Below the pieces are notes generated by a model. It worked only from the letters and a program-made list of their open reading frames with translations, was not told where the DNA came from and did no database searches. Position numbers and translations under genes: made by a program. This document shows, piece by piece, positions 1 through 18,427 of a stretch of 64,000 nucleotides of DNA (its first letter is position 1; each line of letters starts with the position of its first letter). Origin of the DNA: a bacterium (GTDB lineage Bacteria; Fidelibacterota; Fidelibacteria; Fidelibacterales; Fidelibacteraceae); assembly GCA_963676395.1 (NCBI GenBank), contig OY781066.1:384001-448000 (forward strand). Direction: 5' to 3'.

Positions 1-582
1 ATAAATAAAGCCATACTTCAAGATCTCACCAAAACCACAAACCACTTCGCGCAGATCCAGAGTTTTCAATACGGTAGGATCAATTAAGACAATTTCAGGT
101 TGATAAAATGCTCCAATCAAATTCTTTCCGGCCGAGTGATTCACCCCTACTTTTCCACCAACCGAAGAATCAACCTGCGAAAGCAAGGTGGTCGGAACTT
201 GAACAAAGGGTAAACCGCGGTATAAACTCGATGCGATAAAACCGGAAACATCTCCAACAATACCACCGCCTAAAGCAAGAATAGCGCAAGAGCGATCAAA
301 ATTATCATCAATTAATTCATCATACAATTTCGAAACCGTTTCGAGATTTTTATGTATTTCGCCCGATGGCAGTAAATACGATGTTACTTGGTAACCCTGT
401 AATTCCAAAGAGCGCATAACGCGCTCAAGATAAAGTTTTTTTACGGTTTTCGAGACTAAAACAGCAATTCGCTTACCGGGTTTAAGTACATGTTTTAATT
501 CATTTCCAATATCCATCAATAGATGTTGATCTATCCTGATATCATAGGGGTGTTCCGCAATATCTACTTTTACTTTTATCAT
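1..582 (-). CDS. aroB: 3-dehydroquinate synthase (partial, runs off the left edge)
   Basis: Manual minus-strand translation from ATG at 582 (ATGA overlap with the aroK stop) gives MIKVKVDIAEHPYDI...LPSGEIHK...ALGGGIVGDVSGF...QVPTTLLSQVDSSVGGKVGVNH...GKNLIGAFYQP, the DHQ synthase motifs. Confidence 0.95.
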   Translation of the reverse strand, partial: MIKVKVDIAEHPYDIRIDQHLLMDIGNELKHVLKPGKRIAVLVSKTVKKLYLERVMRSLELQGYQVTSYLLPSGEIHKNLETVSKLYDELIDDNFDRSCAILALGGGIVGDVSGFIASSLYRGLPFVQVPTTLLSQVDSSVGGKVGVNHSAGKNLIGAFYQPEIVLIDPTVLKTLDLREVVCGFGEILKYGFIY

Positions 583-10294: not shown

Positions 10295-12427
10295 TCAGTT
10301 TTTTGCATCAAGTCACAACCTAGTGGTGGTGGGCAATATAGTGGGAGTTGTTGTTTTTAGTCAGTTTTTTGCATCAAGTCACAACTACCGTAGGGACACC
10401 CTGTTTTGTTAATGTGTTGTTTTTAGTCAGTTTTTTGCATCAAGTCACAACAGTCAACCTTCTGCTGGTCGTGTCAATATGTTGTTTTTAGTCAGTTTTT
10501 TGCATCAAGTCACAACATGCTTTTGTTTGCTTCGATGGAACTGGAAGTTGTTTTTAGTCAGTTTTTTGCATCAAGTCACAACATAAAAACAGGCACTGTA
10601 AAATTCATAAAAGTTGTTTTTAGTCAGTTTTTTGCATCAAGTCACAACATATTGAATTTAATCGATCGATGATCTCGCGTTGTTTTTAGTCAGTTTTTTG
10701 CATCAAGTCACAACCGATCTCTATCAATCGAAATCAATGCGGAAGTTGTTTTTAGTCAGTTTTTTGCATCAAGTCACAACCCAATACTCTTAATACTAAG
10801 ATAAAAAAAAGTTGTTTTTAGTCAGTTTTTTGCATCAAGTCACAACCTAATGACCTTTATAAGGCATTTTCCGGTAGTTGTTTTTAGTCAGTTTTTTGCA
10901 TCAAGTCACAACACATCGGCCGAGGAGTAGTGCGCATTGGAGTTGTTTTTAGTCAGTTTTTTGCATCAAGTCACAACATATTGCGATAATTCTTTTGACC
11001 TGGCCAAGTTGTTTTTAGTCAGTTTTTTGCATCAAGTCACAACCGTGGCGGTGGTTGCTCTTGCTGTCGTCGCGTTGTTTTTAGTCAGTTTTTTGCATCA
11101 AGTCACAACCTCGATGTTCTTAAATCATTTGTGGAAGTCGTTGTTTTTAGTCAGTTTTTTGCATCAAGTCACAACCATCAGATCGTTAATTGTCATTAGC
11201 TTCATGTTGTTTTTAGTCAGTTTTTTGCATCAAGTCACAACACGAAACCTTGATCAGTTAGAAACAGCTCTGTTGTTTTTAGTCAGTTTTTTGCATCAAG
11301 TCACAACTCAATCTGGTGTTCATCCTTATAGCCATTGGTTGTTTTTAGTCAGTTTTTTGCATCAAGTCACAACAAAGCTTAACGAATTATGTCGGCTACA
11401 TATGTTGTTTTTAGTCAGTTTTTTGCATCAAGTCACAACAGAAAGCTCAACATCCAACATAGAAGAAATGTTGTTTTTAGTCAGTTTTTTGCATCAAGTC
11501 ACAACTAGCAAACGAAATGTCGTAGTTGCTATTAAGTTGTTTTTAGTCAGTTTTTTGCATCAAGTCACAACCGTACCTCGTTTAATACCGTTTATCGTAT
11601 CGTTGTTTTTAGTCAGTTTTTTGCATCAAGTCACAACGAAGAGGGCGAGAATTTAACAACACAGCCAGTTGTTTTTAGTCAGTTTTTTGCATCAAGTCAC
11701 AACCTGTGATCCTGAATGTCAATGGAACAGAAGGTTGTTTTTAGTCAGTTTTTTGCATCAAGTCACAACTAAAATAAAGGAATATAGTTCTTCTATTCGT
11801 TGTTTTTAGTCAGTTTTTTGCATCAAGTCACAACCGGAGTGTTCTTCATCGACTCTGAGAAAAAGTTGTTTTTAGTCAGTTTTTTGCATCAAGTCACAAC
11901 AAATTGCCAGTTATTGCCCTTCCGACATTTGTTGTTTTTAGTCAGTTTTTTGCATCAAGTCACAACATTTCTCAACTTCAAATAGAACTCTGAACTGTTG
12001 TTTTTAGTCAGTTTTTTGCATCAAGTCACAACATAAAATCGTTTTGGATATTTCTTTTTGAGTTGTTTTTAGTCAGTTTTTTGCATCAAGTCACAACCAA
12101 CACAATCTGACCCATCATACTTCAGCGGTTGTTTTTAGTCAGTTTTTTGCATCAAGTCACAACGGGTGACATGTTTCTTGTCAAATTTCACCTGTTGTTT
12201 TTAGTCAGTTTTTTGCATCAAGTCACAACACATCGAATTTAATAAGTCGATGATCTTACGTTGTTTTTAGTCAGTTTTTTGCATCAAGTCACAACATATC
12301 GAGAATCATCAAAAAGAAAGGCCTTGTTGTTTTTAGTCAGTTTTTTGCATCAAGTCACAACCGGAGACAACGCCTGTACTGTCGAGAGTTTGTTGTTTTT
12401 AGTCAGTTTTTTGCATCAAGTCACAAC
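10295..12427 (-). CRISPR. type II-C CRISPR array: 32 identical 36-nt repeats plus 1 truncated trailer repeat, 32 spacers (28 x 30 nt, 4 x 29 nt)
   Basis: Repeat on the minus strand is GTTGTGACTTGATGCAAAAAACTGACTAAAAACAAC; full repeats run from 10350-10385 to 12392-12427, with a degenerate repeat at 10295-10319 marking the trailer. Orientation is supported by the leader promoter and tracrRNA complementarity. Confidence 0.99.
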
Positions 12428-12581: not shown

Positions 12582-12920
12582 TTAAAACATTTCCAATTGT
12601 GCCTTTGGCGGAGGCAATGCTTTGGTCTTATGTCCCCAAAAATTTACAATATTCCCATATTGTTTATCCGTAATACTCATAATGCTCACCTGACCTTCAG
12701 AGGGTACAGATGTTTTGACCCGTTTTACATGTACATCCATGCTTTCCCGGCTGGCGCAGTGCCGGATATACACCGAATATTGCATCATCGTAAATCCGTC
12801 TTTCAGTAATTTCTTACGGAATTGCGAAGCGGCCTTGCGTTCCGCTTTCGTATTGGTCGGAAGGTCAAAAAAAACAAATAACCACATAATACGATAGGCG
12901 TTGATCCGGTTAAATTCCAT
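12582..12920 (-). CDS. cas2: CRISPR-associated endoribonuclease Cas2 (type II)
   Basis: MWLFVFFDLPT, FRKKLLKDGFTMMQYSVY, ITDKQY. Confidence 0.97.
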   Translation of the reverse strand: MEFNRINAYRIMWLFVFFDLPTNTKAERKAASQFRKKLLKDGFTMMQYSVYIRHCASRESMDVHVKRVKTSVPSEGQVSIMSITDKQYGNIVNFWGHKTKALPPPKAQLEMF

Positions 12921-12923
12921 GGT

Positions 12924-13814
12924 TTACTCAATAAACTCGGGCAATTCCAGTTTTCTTGTTTCACCTTTATAACATTTTGCCAATGATGCGGATGTCGTCT
13001 GCATCGCCAGCATCAATGGCTTGATTTCATCATTCATTTTGCAATCGCAAGATAGCACAGCCAATAATTCCATTTTAATTTCTTTTGTTAGATCATCTTG
13101 CTCAGGAAAGGTGGCATTCATCTCATGCACTACAGCATCCACAAAAGGACGATAGGCTTCCATGATATCATCTGCCAAGCAAAATGCATTATAGCGATTA
13201 CGATGGTGAATACCCAAAGTGTTTAATAGTCCGGATCCGGCCAAAGCTCTCGCTACAGCTGCTCGGATTATAGCATACCCGTAATTCAACATATTATTCG
13301 GAGGCAATCCTTCCCGTAAACGCCGAAAATCATAGCCAAATAAACGAGTCCAATACACCCGTGCCGCATAGCCTTCCCGATTATCACTGTCACCGCTTTT
13401 CACTTGTCTTGACATGGATAAGATATCATCACCATTCGAACCCACATATGCCAAAACAGCCGCCTGATTTCTTAATTTTGCTTCTATGCATTGTTTCCAT
13501 AGATTCTTTTTTAAAGGCTCACTTGCATTGATCTGCTCCCTGAATATTTCGTTCTGTATCGTATTCCCATCCAAATTCAGTAACATAGAACGAGGATGAT
13601 GCAAGGTATCGCAGAAGATTAACGCTGTATTATTTTCTCGTAAAACATTCATTAATGGCATAGATAAAGTGATTCGTTGATTATCTAAAACCAAAAAACC
13701 GATATCCTCAATCGGAGTTGACTGAACAGGCTCATTCTCCTTTTCGATCTGCAATTGCCGGTGTTTTACGGAAAGATAGCAGGGTGATGTAATAATGATG
13801 GTGCGTTTAATCAA
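12924..13814 (-). CDS. cas1: CRISPR-associated endonuclease Cas1 (type II)
   Basis: PIEDIG, SGDSDNREGYAARVYW, NNMLNYGYAIIR, LGIHHRNRYNAFCLADDIME. Confidence 0.97.
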   Translation of the reverse strand: MIKRTIIITSPCYLSVKHRQLQIEKENEPVQSTPIEDIGFLVLDNQRITLSMPLMNVLRENNTALIFCDTLHHPRSMLLNLDGNTIQNEIFREQINASEPLKKNLWKQCIEAKLRNQAAVLAYVGSNGDDILSMSRQVKSGDSDNREGYAARVYWTRLFGYDFRRLREGLPPNNMLNYGYAIIRAAVARALAGSGLLNTLGIHHRNRYNAFCLADDIMEAYRPFVDAVVHEMNATFPEQDDLTKEIKMELLAVLSCDCKMNDEIKPLMLAMQTTSASLAKCYKGETRKLELPEFIE

Positions 13815-16800
13815 ATATTCTTCCTAAAATAGTTTGATTTACTTTCATTGGATTAAAGGTTAACCAACCAGTTGTACCTTTCCCAAAATTTTTTATATAT
13901 ATATAATCATTCTTTGCTTCATTATCCTTCCTTGAATCTAAATGATGTTTAAAACATAATTCCATAAAATAACTACCACCTGCAATTTTTTGAACTTTAT
14001 ACAAATGTTTTGAAAACTGCTCTATAGGGATATTTGCTAAATTAATACTTTCATTTAACCCCAAAAAAAACATATCATTCTTTTTTAAAGTTGTTACAAT
14101 TCGTTTGCCATCACTAGGAAGTTGATATATTGACTCTTTTCGTTTAATTCGTTGCGAAACGTCCCAAAACGATACAACGTTCTCTTTCAACTCATCATTA
14201 ATATCTTTATAAATCATCACATGATGATTAGACCTTGGATTTACATATTGAGTCAAAGTGTTCTTAAGCTTTCTGGCATTCCCAATTTCTTCTCGTATTC
14301 TAACCTTAGTAACAGGAACTTCTTCCCCATTTTTATTTGGAAGTTTTATCATAAATTTCCCGTTTTTATAGAATGCATCTTTGGGAATTGTATATTTATT
14401 ATTTGTATCAATTCCATATTCATTTTGCAAATATGATTCAATTAATTTTCTAATACCCTTATCAACAACTTTATCTACATGTGTTTTTCCAGATAAACTT
14501 GTAATGGATTTTCTTACATGAAAGGCTTCTCGACCATCAGGAGCAGTCCTTTTCCCAAATACAGTCTCTTTATGCAACTGCCCCCTAGCAGCATGTTTAC
14601 CACTATTAAAAGTACGATTATCTTTAAAATATGATACCAATATTGCATCTGCAGATTTTTGAACATCAACTCTAAAATTCTCCCAAGGGGCATCAAATTC
14701 AGGTCTTCCAGATCTTTTACCTTCATATCGCTCACGTATTTGAGCATTATATGTACTCAGCTTTTGCAAAAAGCTTCTTTCTGTACACGCGATTGCCATT
14801 GCATCAATAGCATGATGTCGTTGATCTTCTCTATTTTTCTTTGGATCAAAACGTACTTCACCCTGTTTATCTATCCAAATATTACCTTCGATAAGTTTTT
14901 CATTTTTATTTAATTTAGGTTCTTCACTTTCGACGGGAATAAAATCAATTTCTTCATCTTGTTTTTCAAATACAGCCCAATATTTTCCAAGAGGTAGATC
15001 GGTTCCATATGCTTGATCGGGATTTTCATCGGATATCCATGTACCATTATTATCTGTGCTACCAGACAACATAATTTGATTTGCGTTAATAACAGGTTTA
15101 TCAGCTAATACACGCATCAAAGAAACATCGCTAACATTAAGATCTAGTACAGCCCAAACATCTACTTCTTCATGTTCTGTTGGACAAGAATATTGATAAG
15201 AAGAAAAATACCCATTCTCAATCTTTCCCCAAATAGCTAACTGCCCTTTTTTAGGTTTTGGTTTTTCTTTATCTATAAATGTTACTTTCAACACATCAAA
15301 ACTAGCCCAATATTTCCCATTAAGCTTATCTTTTACATCAATCTTTATCCCGATCTTTTCATAAATAAATTTTTCATTACTAACACTACCTTTTAAAACA
15401 ATCACCCTTGAAGTGGGAACGGGTTTATCATTAAAAAATCGATAGAAAGTCGGAGTATTTTTGACCGATATTTTGCACCAATATTTTCCATTTCTATTTT
15501 CAGTTGCAACTATATCATGACTATTATCTGACTTAAACACTTCTTTATTCACATAACCGGGAAACAAACAATAACCTCTTGTAACCTGTGGTTTTATATT
15601 TTGTTTTTTATGTACCGATACAAATGAACCATCTTCTCTAACAACTGCCCAGTGAGGGATCTTAACATTATCTTTTGCATCAATGATTAAATTTGCATCG
15701 GTGAGATTTTTTGCCGGTTGAAGTACATTGTTTAGTCCCCATAAATGACGCAATTCTGCTGTTAATTTACCGGGTAATATTTGCACATTATCACATATCT
15801 CTTGAAGTAAATTCTTTGCTTCCTTGCTGATATAACGCATATCATTTAACTGTCTCGAAATAAAGCTATCTTGATCAATTGACTTTCTTGATGTAAAACG
15901 CTTCGCTTTATTATAGGGCAGCAATGAAAATGCTCTTATTTGGATATCATCCCAGGATTTAGCACCACCCCATAATGCCGGATCTGAATTACTTTGATAA
16001 AATTCACAAGGCGTTTTTTCACCCTTTTCTCGATTAAAATTTGCTTCACATAAAGTAATATTAGCAAAACTGTCATCTAGAGAAACGCTATATGGAATAA
16101 TGTGCTCTATTTGAAATAGATTTCCGCTACCTAAGACATCATTGATTCTGATAGTTTTACCTGTATATGGACATACCACAGGATTCATATGTTCTTCAAT
16201 TTCTTTGTACAATAAATACTTGCGAATATTCTGTCTTGTATGGGCCAATCCAAATTCAGATAACTTTTCTTTGGCAACGTCATTTTTTCTTTTATTATCA
16301 TTTATTTTATATGACATTTCCTGGCGTAATTTTGAATTATTTTTCAAATCACGGCCCATTTCCACCTTAATTATATCCATTTGCCCATATTCCTTGAGCA
16401 AAGCATTTACCACATGACGGGTTTCAGATAAAGCTCTCTGAACTAATGGATTTCTTAAGTTTGGAACTGTTGATAATTTACGTTTCAATTCTCCTGTGTT
16501 TGCTTTGAGGTCCACTGAAGGATGATATAATTTTTTAAATTTTTTGTCCTTTGCTTCAAAACCAAAATCAATTTCTTTAGTACCTGATAATAAGAATGAT
16601 TTTATTTTTTCTATCAACTCACCCTCAGCATTTTTTTCTTTCATAAAATGTTTTACAGTATTTTCGATGAGTTCATGTTCTTTACTAAACAAATTCCACT
16701 TTTCCTTACCAAAGGCATTTTTTATACCACCAAGAATAACCGCTAAACTCAAAGAATACCCTTTAATTAAGAAAGGATTTATATTACGAATAGCTTTTAA

Positions 16801-18324
16801 AGAAAGTGAACCATAGTCATCTGCTAAATGTATTTTTCTTATATCATCTACTGATTTGCATTTACATGCATAATCTTTTTTAAGCTTGTTATACAATTTG
16901 TCATTATCAGCGTAAAAATGAAAACAATGCCAAATATCAAGATAATTATTTTCCCATACGGCTGCATCAAAAAGTGGTTTTAAATTAGCTATTGTTTTAT
17001 TGCAGGGAACGGAGAACTCATCATCATAATTAAAGCGTTCCGATGTTAGTTTTAGCTTTTTAGGTATATCTTTAAACTTAAAATTTGATTTTTTACTATT
17101 AATTAACTCCAGTACAATCTTTCGCTGTTCTTCATCAAGCTTCTGCCTTGTCCCATATTCAATATTGTTGATAAATTGATATGCACGATATAACTCAAAT
17201 TCCGGATGTGAGAGACAACATGGACTTTTTCCTGTCACAATCTTTTTTTTATCAATAACAACCGTTTGATGTTCATATCTACACTTGTTTAATAAATTCT
17301 TTTGACTCCTCAGAGGACGTTGCCAGAATAATACACTTTCATTTGTGTTTTTATGCACTATAAAATCTTCTTTCATCCAAATATCGCCGGCTAAATATTT
17401 AAATAAGGGAACTTCTGTTTCACTTATGACAACATTACCACGTATTTTGATATTATTCTTGCCATATTTATTTTCCAAAAAGTTAATTTTCTCTATGTTT
17501 CTTTTTGCTGATAACGATCCCCGAAGCATCCGAACTTTTTTTTGAATTACTTTCTGATTATTTAACCCCAAATGACCTGCTTGGCATTCCCAAATATGAT
17601 ATAATTCTTCAATGTACATATCTCTTAGCGTATATCTTGATCTTGCACGAAGAATTTTCCCATCTTCATCTCTATATTCTTTATATGGCTCACCTTTTGC
17701 CGGAATAATTGAATATAAGTATTCACCCAATAACTTATCTTTCATTTTATCCTGAGTTTCCGAAATCCCAACCTTATCATCTTTGCCTTTATATAGAGTA
17801 CCGGTATCGCTATTCTGATCTTTTCTACTGCTAACAAAACCTCTTCTTTGAATAAAATGATAAAGTATCCTACCTAATTCTTGAAGTGTAATTTCTTCTT
17901 TAACAGCTCTATTTCTTAGCTCATATGGATTTAATTTTAACCATTCGTTAAACTCAGGTGTGTTAGGAAATTCTCTTTGGGTGCCTGTTATATCTTTATG
18001 ATATTTTTTCCATCCATCCAAATCATGCATGCTAAGTGGACACATATTCTTTTCGATTAATATTTCAAGCAACTTGATTTTTCTTAATCTTTTCCGATAG
18101 AATTGTCTTCTTTTTTGACGAAATTCACGTCGTTTAGCATTTCTTGATTTTTCATTTTGTCCCTTACCAATTGTATCTGGTTCTAAACCTTCGGGAAAAA
18201 TTCTCACACCCGAATCAATGATAGAAGTATATTTTTCTACCTGTCCCTTAATGTTTATATCAGCCTCCACTATCGCCCAACCGATACTGTTTGTTCCCAG
18301 ATCCAATCCTAAAATGCGCCCCAT
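13807..18324 (-). CDS. cas9: type II-C Cas9, 1505 aa, with a large repeat insertion in RuvC-III
   Basis: RuvC-I ILGLDLGTNSIG, Arg-rich bridge helix, RuvC-II VEMGR, HNH CPYTG..IEHIIP..NREKG, RuvC-III RHHAIDA; RBS AGGAG at 18331-18335; no csn2 or cas4 in the locus. Confidence 0.98.
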   Translation of the reverse strand: MGRILGLDLGTNSIGWAIVEADINIKGQVEKYTSIIDSGVRIFPEGLEPDTIGKGQNEKSRNAKRREFRQKRRQFYRKRLRKIKLLEILIEKNMCPLSMHDLDGWKKYHKDITGTQREFPNTPEFNEWLKLNPYELRNRAVKEEITLQELGRILYHFIQRRGFVSSRKDQNSDTGTLYKGKDDKVGISETQDKMKDKLLGEYLYSIIPAKGEPYKEYRDEDGKILRARSRYTLRDMYIEELYHIWECQAGHLGLNNQKVIQKKVRMLRGSLSAKRNIEKINFLENKYGKNNIKIRGNVVISETEVPLFKYLAGDIWMKEDFIVHKNTNESVLFWQRPLRSQKNLLNKCRYEHQTVVIDKKKIVTGKSPCCLSHPEFELYRAYQFINNIEYGTRQKLDEEQRKIVLELINSKKSNFKFKDIPKKLKLTSERFNYDDEFSVPCNKTIANLKPLFDAAVWENNYLDIWHCFHFYADNDKLYNKLKKDYACKCKSVDDIRKIHLADDYGSLSLKAIRNINPFLIKGYSLSLAVILGGIKNAFGKEKWNLFSKEHELIENTVKHFMKEKNAEGELIEKIKSFLLSGTKEIDFGFEAKDKKFKKLYHPSVDLKANTGELKRKLSTVPNLRNPLVQRALSETRHVVNALLKEYGQMDIIKVEMGRDLKNNSKLRQEMSYKINDNKRKNDVAKEKLSEFGLAHTRQNIRKYLLYKEIEEHMNPVVCPYTGKTIRINDVLGSGNLFQIEHIIPYSVSLDDSFANITLCEANFNREKGEKTPCEFYQSNSDPALWGGAKSWDDIQIRAFSLLPYNKAKRFTSRKSIDQDSFISRQLNDMRYISKEAKNLLQEICDNVQILPGKLTAELRHLWGLNNVLQPAKNLTDANLIIDAKDNVKIPHWAVVREDGSFVSVHKKQNIKPQVTRGYCLFPGYVNKEVFKSDNSHDIVATENRNGKYWCKISVKNTPTFYRFFNDKPVPTSRVIVLKGSVSNEKFIYEKIGIKIDVKDKLNGKYWASFDVLKVTFIDKEKPKPKKGQLAIWGKIENGYFSSYQYSCPTEHEEVDVWAVLDLNVSDVSLMRVLADKPVINANQIMLSGSTDNNGTWISDENPDQAYGTDLPLGKYWAVFEKQDEEIDFIPVESEEPKLNKNEKLIEGNIWIDKQGEVRFDPKKNREDQRHHAIDAMAIACTERSFLQKLSTYNAQIRERYEGKRSGRPEFDAPWENFRVDVQKSADAILVSYFKDNRTFNSGKHAARGQLHKETVFGKRTAPDGREAFHVRKSITSLSGKTHVDKVVDKGIRKLIESYLQNEYGIDTNNKYTIPKDAFYKNGKFMIKLPNKNGEEVPVTKVRIREEIGNARKLKNTLTQYVNPRSNHHVMIYKDINDELKENVVSFWDVSQRIKRKESIYQLPSDGKRIVTTLKKNDMFFLGLNESINLANIPIEQFSKHLYKVQKIAGGSYFMELCFKHHLDSRKDNEAKNDYIYIKNFGKGTTGWLTFNPMKVNQTILGRIFD

Positions 18325-18350
18325 GCTATACTCCTAAAAATGAATGAAAT

Positions 18351-18427
18351 AAAAGAGTCCCCACCGAGGCGGGGACATAGACATCAAAGTCTTCGGCATA
18401 TAGCCTTATTGTGACAAGATGCAATTC
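18351..18427 (-). ncRNA. tracrRNA (~75 nt)
   Basis: Anti-repeat TTGCATCTTGTCACAAT (18408-18424) pairs with the repeat 5' end GTTGTGACTTGATGCAA (two U-U mismatches). It is followed by a nexus-like AAGGCTATATGCC, hairpin AGAC-TTTGAT-GTCT, and terminal hairpin GTCCCCGCCTCGGTGGGGAC plus TCTTTT. Confidence 0.9.

Follow-up and report, generated by a model that had tools for sequence, protein, structure and literature searches.

A five-repeat all-beta accessory domain at the RuvC-III loop of a type II-C Cas9

INTRODUCTION

The closest described counterparts of the nuclease considered here are the compact type II-C Cas9 proteins of solved structure (9ar4_A, 8uza_A, 8jtj_A, 6jdv_A, and others). A cas9 gene from a bacterium of the phylum Fidelibacterota, carried on a stretch of 64,000 nucleotides that was analyzed as a whole and is called the window (GenBank assembly GCA_963676395.1, contig OY781066.1, positions 384,001 to 448,000), encodes a protein with the same nuclease motifs in the same domain order, and its locus shares the cas9-cas1-cas2 plus array layout of the compact enzymes. 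The difference lies at a point in RuvC-III where the solved compact proteins have 0 residues and the window Cas9 has 293. We describe this insert, here called the tower, as a five-repeat, all-beta accessory domain found only in Cas9 and seated beside the last catalytic helix.

More closely related Cas9 proteins, among them P0101 (labelled Flavivirga abyssicola) and P0143, share 45 to 49% identity with the window Cas9 over the C-terminal 344 residues and have the same flanks, WGLN and (K/R)xR(E/D)DxRHHAxDA. They contain no repeat unit (about 1125 to 1146 amino acids [aa] in all) or one (about 1143 to 1227 aa), as opposed to five, and they also lack an insertion in the REC lobe that the window Cas9 carries. 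CbCas9 (PDB 8iyq), a large type II-C Cas9 of the Bacteroidota type, has about 42 extra residues at the same loop, but these show no detectable similarity to the window repeat unit; a PDB sequence search with the one-unit region matched CbCas9 in HHALDA only. CbCas9 reportedly works with a separate accessory protein, PcrIIC1 (Zhang et al., Nature 2024, as cited in PMC12669027), whereas no accessory-protein gene adjoins cas9 in the window.

An analogue in working principle may be the Nuc/TNB domain of Cas12. Like the tower, it is inserted into the RuvC fold immediately ahead of the last catalytic helix, and there it deals with the strand due for cleavage. It belongs to another protein family and fold and matches the tower in neither sequence nor structure; Cas9, moreover, already has HNH for the target strand. 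The term "RuvC insertion" is in use for Cas12j3 (PMC8298400).

RESULTS

The insert replaces a five-residue loop in an otherwise intact nuclease

The full-length protein matched Pfam RuvC_III (E 3.5e-32) and HNH_4 (E 1e-18) and, by sequence, 41 solved Cas9 chains (best E 4.4e-41). Pfam and the solved chains agree on a split RuvC-like nuclease with an inserted HNH, the arrangement expected of a type II-C Cas9. The HNH_4 match was unbroken, and the RuvC_III match fell into two stretches that flank the insert. The relevant features are as follows.

13807..18324, minus strand: cas9, type II-C, 1505 aa (open reading frame [ORF], Pfam, and alignments to solved chains)
16009..16173, minus strand: HNH nuclease motif, aa 718-772 (Pfam HNH_4)
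14842..15720, minus strand: the insert, aa 869-1161, 293 residues, a five-repeat all-beta "tower" in RuvC-III (alignments, repeats, and AlphaFold2)
14800..14817, minus strand: HHAIDA, aa 1170-1175, the His/Asp helix of RuvC-III (aligned to LHHAVDA of 9ar4_A)

A sequence-only reading of the window had proposed that about 290 residues are inserted at aa 869-1161 and that the catalytic motifs are intact, and alignment bore out both points. The motifs GLDLGTNSIGWA, QIEHIIPYS...NFNREKG, and RHHAIDA align to their equivalents in 9ar4_A; we take the RuvC-I Asp, the HNH His and Asn, and the RuvC-III His and Asp to have their customary roles. Residues 617-865 of the window Cas9 correspond to residues 462-710 of 9ar4_A and residues 1159-1223 to residues 707-772. 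The two blocks abut in the solved chain (710 versus 707-712), which therefore has no linker residues at the insertion point. At this site the closest insert-less relatives read WGLNxIL-NDENA-KTREDHRHHAIDA and the window Cas9 reads WGLNNVL-[QPAKN...RFDP]-KKNREDQRHHAIDA, so that the boundaries first proposed are exact and 293 residues take the place of a 5-residue loop. The insert is thus a genuine lineage-specific accessory domain replacing a surface loop of RuvC-III.

The C-terminal end of the insert lies 9 residues upstream of the HHAIDA helix, which agrees with its earlier placement near the RuvC active site. By correspondence with H983 and D986 of SpCas9, this helix carries the catalytic His and Asp. 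Residues 961-976 of SpCas9 line the groove for the non-target strand, and by analogy the insert would sit on the rim of the groove. Queried alone, the insert matched 0 Pfam families at E<=1 and no solved chain in the PDB by sequence (best E 0.037).

Five repeat units are statistically supported

The insert was divided into the following units.

15601..15720, minus strand: U0, aa 869-908, linker and leading C-terminal half-unit, IPHWAVV..FVSVHKKQ (hhalign; fold-match ranges 4..296)
15433..15600, minus strand: U1, aa 909-964 (hhalign, 98.1-98.9% to U2, U3, and U4)
15268..15432, minus strand: U2, aa 965-1019 (hhalign, 97.5-98.9%; together with U3, aligned to TOBE/di-Mop double barrels at Z 4.2-5.3)
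15103..15267, minus strand: U3, aa 1020-1074, the most diverged in the single sequence (profile, 97.5-98.8%)
14929..15102, minus strand: U4, aa 1075-1132 (hhalign, 98.3-98.8%)
14842..14928, minus strand: U5, aa 1133-1161, trailing N-terminal half-unit, EEPKLNKNEKLIEGNIWIDKQGEVRFDP (hhalign, 61-78%)

Within the single sequence, similarity was highest between U2 and U4 (z 8.8) and between U1 and U2 (z 6.5), neither score being reached in 500 shuffles; U1 and U4 gave z 3.6 (7/500 shuffles), and U3 was weak against the others (z 1.0-2.6, 500 shuffles). In addition, 30 complete homologous inserts were cut into units and compared profile to profile with hhalign. All six pairs among U1 to U4, those with U3 included, then scored 48 to 70 with probabilities of 97.5 to 98.9%, against 7.5 to 13.0 for reversed targets and at most 13.5 for column-shuffled ones. 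The leading piece U0 matched the C-terminal halves of U1 and U4 (78-88%), and the trailing piece U5 matched the first 17 residues of U1, U2, and U4 (61-78%); joined, U0 and U5 matched U1, U2, U3, and U4 with probabilities of 96, 94, 82, and 97%. The trailing half-unit is the best-conserved portion of the insert and contains invariant columns. The five repeats of about 55 aa noted in the sequence-only reading are real and significant against shuffled, reversed, and column-shuffled controls.

In its natural frame, a unit runs from one or more GxYW strands through N-x-K/R-P to a hydrophobic strand ending in G-x-V and then to G-x-F. Moving the frame by half a unit yields five whole tandem units, which makes the circular permutation previously invoked for the fifth unit superfluous. 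The accompanying claim that the leading and trailing halves belong together held: structural matches range over residues 4..296 of the insert model, and some Cas9 proteins hold this module alone, as described next.

Insert sizes fall into three discrete classes

Homologues were taken from searches seeded with the insert or with its flanks, for each of which 120 matches were listed (of 3125 and 1032 family members). In 244 of the 265 Cas9 proteins so obtained, the spacing from WGLx to HHAxDA could be measured (fragments and proteins missing one of the motifs made up the remaining 21). It was 15 to 17 residues in 84 proteins, 70 to 79 in 58, and 300 to 348 in 102, proportions that reflect the seeding of the searches rather than population frequencies. 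No spacing between 80 and 299, and no insert of two, three, or four units, occurred among the 244. Insert sizes in this set are therefore discrete, at 0, 1, or 5 units. The 70 to 79 class holds one unit of 55 to 63 aa, with the C-terminal half preceding the N-terminal half (..DGEYLAAVD...W......L.KKG..v.G.V.dG.F..). By sequence, this one-unit insert is the leading and trailing pieces of the window tower joined directly, and we call it the base module.

Predicted structure of the insert

Modeled with AlphaFold2 from 8 sequences, the insert gave a predicted local distance difference test (pLDDT) score of 85.3 and a predicted template modeling (pTM) score of 0.63; with 30 sequences these rose to 91.8 and 0.77, and the five models ranged from 90.5 to 91.8 in pLDDT. 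Both predictions were all-beta, each unit being built of one long strand, two short ones, and another that is very long and sometimes broken. The insert is thus predicted to fold confidently and compactly into an all-beta domain, in accord with the beta-rich accessory domain first envisaged.

Searches for a structural counterpart returned little. Foldseek found nothing at E<=0.001 in the PDB with either model (best E 0.035 and 0.013, TM<=0.15) or in BFVD (best E 0.022), and the ESM Atlas gave no usable match to the insert. VIA-align, run over 48,161 chains, produced no match at Z>=8 (best 5.8), where the tool's own guide gives Z 7 to 8 as typical for unmatched models. Beta-propellers, pinwheels, and trefoils were absent from the listed structural matches of every search.

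The ranges over which the weak matches fall do carry a pattern. Among the 50 VIA-align rows listed, 33 span about residues 100-210 of the model (26 of these with just 44 to 55 aligned residues), 13 single barrels span from about 43-54 to 265-267 with 41 to 57 residues aligned, 3 span 4/5..296 with 52 to 59 aligned, and 1, Cas7-11, falls outside these classes (91..255). In a further list of structural matches, the top 13 rows were C-terminal parts of MalK-type ABC ATPases or ModE, aligned over 93 to 106 residues on 100-210. These proteins form the only family aligned over about 100 residues, and they fall on U2 plus U3 (Z 3.9-5.3). Their C-terminal regulatory parts are TOBE/di-Mop double barrels. 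On the TOBE/di-Mop proteins (MalK, CysA, GlcV, and ModE), U2 plus U3 superpose over 92 to 106 residues with Z 3.9 to 5.3 and a root mean square deviation (rmsd) of 3.2 to 4.4, below the noise guide. Two repeats form two intertwined small barrels there, as they may in U2 and U3. The Pfam null result leaves no sequence relationship between them and the tower, and the pairs of the tower would, unlike theirs, be nested and housed inside a nuclease. Rows of the oligonucleotide/oligosaccharide-binding (OB) type were weak, with Z 3.2 to 4.0 over 44 to 55 residues, and the insert is net acidic in 25 of 30 representatives.

The fold-match ranges suggest that the N-terminal half of a unit pairs with the C-terminal half of its mirror unit (U2 with U3, U1 with U4, and U5 with U0). 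They show the termini of the tower paired (4..296) and favor mirror pairing over a ring of blades. We consider a nested hairpin tower of mirror-paired units, as opposed to a five-fold ring, slightly more probable than not. Of the closed, pseudo-symmetric domain proposed from the sequence, the pairing of the termini therefore stands, and the match ranges suggest a nested mirror hairpin in place of five-fold symmetry. Mean-field direct-coupling analysis of the nested pairing (102 inserts, Neff 88) placed its top couplings mostly in gap-rich columns.

As a separate observation, the base module (model residues 4-45 and 268-296; Cas9 aa ~869-910 and 1133-1161) had the anti-CRISPR protein AcrIIC1 as its top structural row in both models. 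With the second model, 9j1y_B gave Z 5.8 (rmsd 2.3, 59 of 90 residues) and 9j2g_B gave Z 5.5; with the first, the AcrIIC1 rows scored Z 5.0 and 4.7. All lie below the noise guide, and no AcrIIC1 sequence match appeared in the PDB search.

The domain is confined to Cas9 and marks a clade

A profile of the insert run against 1.84 billion representative sequences retrieved 34 proteins at E<=0.001. RuvC_III was present in all 34, which identifies them as Cas9 proteins or Cas9 fragments; within this collection the domain is confined to Cas9, which answers the question, raised with the original observation, of whether it occurs elsewhere. No second copy or donor was found in the bacterium's own genome at E<=10. 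Records with five units include Odoribacter laneus YIT 12061, Gaoshiqia sediminis, Mangrovibacterium sp., and metagenome-assembled genomes (MAGs) of "Candidatus Neomarinimicrobiota," Bacteroidales, Marinilabiliaceae, and Prolixibacteraceae.

Within a sample of the phylum, 7 of 401 genomes, the bacterium's own included, held a match, one of which is doubtful. This match (L012, at G032:C15:32902-33081) covers 60 residues at E 7.6e-4 in a frame of 109 aa that is interrupted by a single TAG stop. It weakly resembles units 3 and 4, comes from a different family of the phylum, and could be due to chance or represent a remnant.

Trees were built with FastTree from alignments without the insert columns, with long branches flagged. 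With 131 rows (22 dropped), every size class occupied one side of a branch, and a simple growth series from 0 to 1 to 5 units fitted. This series failed on the tree of 239 rows (26 dropped), which required six size changes. A split with 99% support in the larger tree separates 79 insert-less proteins from a clade of all 156 insert-bearing ones plus 4 that lack the insert. When the root is placed on the insert-less clade, the one-unit clade emerges from among the five-unit lineages and renders them paraphyletic. Support at the nodes that decide this is only 16 to 75, so that expansion from 1 to 5 and reduction from 5 to 1 are both possible. Homologue searches, size classes, and trees together confirm the suggestion that the insert marks a clade.

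The four insert-less proteins outside the main insert-less group (P0203, P0239, P0204, and P0209) nest within the one-unit clade, and their position in this sequence tree suggests secondary loss of the single unit. An origin of the unit elsewhere in Cas9 was considered and set aside (hhalign against N- and C-terminal alignments, at most 14% probability), as was a look-alike in the CbCas9 C terminus (score -3.7).

The tower diverges quickly and keeps its units

Across 90 five-unit homologues, mean identity to the window Cas9 was 33% in the insert, 58% upstream, and 49% downstream. The insert diverged faster than both flanks in 87 to 90 of the 90 comparisons, and its length was nonetheless kept: all 102 five-unit proteins hold 300 to 348 residues between WGLx and HHAxDA, insert counted. 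Units at the same position in different proteins scored 62.6, versus 40.5 for different units inside one protein, and in 1043 of 1740 comparisons it was the same-position unit that matched best. Since same-position units are the most alike, the five units are old and individually maintained. Five of the 30 representative towers are basic (isoelectric point [pI] 8.0-9.4); outside the tower, Cas9 is basic in all 30 (pI 8.8-9.7).

A second insertion accompanies the tower.

17410..17559, minus strand: basic insertion in the REC lobe, ~aa 256-305, ~50-60 aa (anchor-motif distances)

Its pattern is K.R.L.GS....RN..KI..L..KYG. The distance between two invariant anchor motifs, unmeasurable in 31 proteins, was 52 to 104 in all 82 measurable five-unit Cas9s (at least 78 in 81 of them), 39 to 45 in 38 of 38 insert-less proteins, and 34 to 40 in 2 of 2 one-unit proteins. 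As kin share traits, these data establish co-occurrence of the tower and the REC insertion, not coupling.

The CRISPR locus

Downstream of cas9 on the same strand lie cas1, cas2, and a CRISPR array, and upstream lies a candidate tracrRNA.

18347..18424, minus strand: candidate tracrRNA, in which the anti-repeat TTGCATCTTGTCACAA precedes a GC-rich hairpin and a T run (by eye)
12924..13814, minus strand: cas1 (Pfam Cas_Cas1, E 2.8e-28)
12582..12920, minus strand: cas2 (Pfam CRISPR_Cas2, E 5.9e-19)
10350..12427, minus strand: CRISPR array, 32 identical 36-nucleotide (nt) repeats, 31 spacers, period 65-66 nt (repeat search)

The repeat matched 32 times with 0 mismatches (chance expectation 0), and from cas2 to the array the window ORF list shows nothing further of 100 aa or more. 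Judged by eye, 14 of 16 positions of the anti-repeat TTGCATCTTGTCACAA are complementary to the CRISPR repeat in its 5' half, the exception being an internal mismatch of 2 nt. The locus is of type II-C: its only other cas genes are cas1 and cas2, neither csn2 nor cas4 being present, and it has an array and a tracrRNA candidate whose anti-repeat was recognized by eye. The window Cas9 is thus an otherwise complete type II-C Cas9, in the order tracrRNA candidate, cas9, cas1, cas2, and 32-repeat array. The tracrRNA candidate sits between rpsA and cas9, immediately upstream of the latter. A plus-strand ORF of 239 aa at 10937..11656, with a recurring LFLVSFLHQVTT, is merely the CRISPR array translated.

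DISCUSSION

We hold with high confidence that the window Cas9 carries a five-repeat, all-beta accessory domain, found in Cas9 only, at the RuvC-III loop beside the catalytic helix. No description of this insert, and no functional characterization, was found in the literature (subscription papers and supplements lay outside the search); the sequence-only reading likewise knew of no functional characterization.

How such a domain might act can be sketched from its predicted architecture. The chain would exit RuvC, ascend through the half-barrels U0C, U1, and U2, turn, and descend through U3, U4, and U5N, mirror partners (U2 with U3, U1 with U4, and U5 with U0) completing small OB/TOBE-like barrels. 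A tower nested in this way would be fixed to RuvC at one point, would contribute no catalytic residues, and would project from the edge of the groove in which the displaced non-target strand lies. There it might cover or clamp that strand or the R-loop as a lid and so tune how readily the RuvC site is reached or how long it stays occupied. In this it would resemble Nuc/TNB, which occupies the topologically equivalent position in the RuvC fold of Cas12 enzymes, and the mostly acidic tower could reach the REC lobe at the co-occurring basic insertion of about 50 to 60 aa. Taken by itself, the role of a steric lid or clamp is possible but doubtful. The account as a whole (accessory domain, nested tower, and lid or clamp) is our best explanation and a tentative one. 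A bolder version is rather unlikely: it would have the stack of mirror-paired half-barrels be a new fold that grows and shrinks by whole units, and the lid bridge to REC and alter the opening, holding, or trimming of DNA, as a counterpart of Cas12 Nuc/TNB.

Several observations weigh against our best explanation. The tower is acidic to neutral (pI 4.9-6.8) in 25 of 30 representatives, unlike a generic nucleic-acid binder. At a threshold of 70% of the 30 inserts, the conserved columns consist almost entirely of Gly, Pro, and aromatic residues, hence structural ones, and no conserved basic or catalytic surface stands out among them. The nested architecture is read from the first and last aligned residues of the matches and nothing else, and the fold similarities (Z<=5.8, under the guide of 7 to 8) carry no functional weight. 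One five-unit protein, P0042, has only a stub of the REC insertion, and tower and REC insertion may occur together because of one event in a common ancestor, without being coupled. Finally, the literature yielded no experiment on any tower-bearing Cas9. Simple binding of DNA is disfavored by the acidic charge and by the absence of any conserved functional surface, and three alternatives stay alive.

The first makes the tower a protein-docking platform, for Cas1-Cas2, a host factor, or a second Cas9, or else an anti-CRISPR decoy or shield of the HNH/RuvC face. An interface under changing pressure would fit a domain that outpaces its flanks so consistently while its length and fold residues stay, and the nearest fold class, the MalK-type regulatory/TOBE domain, is a protein-protein regulatory platform. 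The top structural row of the base module, AcrIIC1, is itself a Cas9 HNH binder (Z 5.8, 59 aligned), although this and every other structural similarity falls below the noise guide of the tool. Neither in the window nor at the Odoribacter laneus locus does a conserved accessory gene stand beside cas9, where only cas1 and cas2 occur, and no anti-CRISPR is known to target this RuvC loop. We judge this alternative unlikely.

The second alternative is that the tower is a tolerated passenger, a self-folding repeat in a permissive loop that gains and loses units by duplication and deletion with little effect on Cas9 activity. Closely related and apparently intact Cas9 proteins do carry 0, 1, or 5 units at the same loop, loss seems to have been tolerated in the four insert-less proteins inside the one-unit clade, and the conserved residues are purely structural. 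Against this, partial decay was seen in 0 of 102 five-unit proteins, with no size from 80 to 299; orthologous units remain recognizable down to 15 to 30% identity, and about 880 nt of coding sequence is retained in small genomes of about 2.3 Mb. Together these features point to purifying selection on the whole tower, and we find a passenger decidedly unlikely.

A third alternative assigns the charge a function. As an autoinhibitory acidic gate, the tower would screen the basic DNA cleft or the non-target-strand groove in the apo or binary state and be displaced by the R-loop, limiting stray cutting. The contrast in pI (4.9-6.8 in 25/30 towers versus 8.8-9.7 elsewhere in the protein), the attachment beside the RuvC catalytic helix, and the basic REC insertion as a possible docking site would all suit such a gate. 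Five of the 30 towers are basic, though, and no conserved acidic patch was identified. The proposal is pure inference, and we judge it highly unlikely.

Most improbable is a single-stranded DNA-binding array in which five OB-like barrels grip the displaced strand or the cleaved products through the GxYW aromatics: OB proteins (aIF1A, cold-shock domains, S17, the ligase OB domain, and IF1) fill much of the VIA-align list and each unit has a conserved Tyr-Trp pair, but the OB rows reach Z 3.2 to 4.0 at most, the net charge is acidic, both aromatics may be buried within intertwined barrels, and the residue preceding Tyr-Trp is not conserved as basic.

The accessory domain itself, whatever its role, has no Pfam family, solved structural counterpart, or description that we could find, and it lies in a heavily studied enzyme. 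The branch that carries it numbers at least 100 sequence clusters, which stem from genomes of Bacteroidales, of the Marinilabiliales type, and of "Ca. Neomarinimicrobiota," and the discrete series of 0, 1, and 5 units offers ready natural deletion variants for experiments. Even a passive tower would mean that a loop by the displaced strand tolerates domains of 0, 55, or 300 residues, which is useful for domain-inlaid editors; should the new fold and the lid prove true, they would be natural proof that the loop accepts domains of 55 to 300 residues. Contact of the tower with the displaced strand or with REC, should it occur, would represent a new control of RuvC cutting, cut geometry, or R-loop stability.

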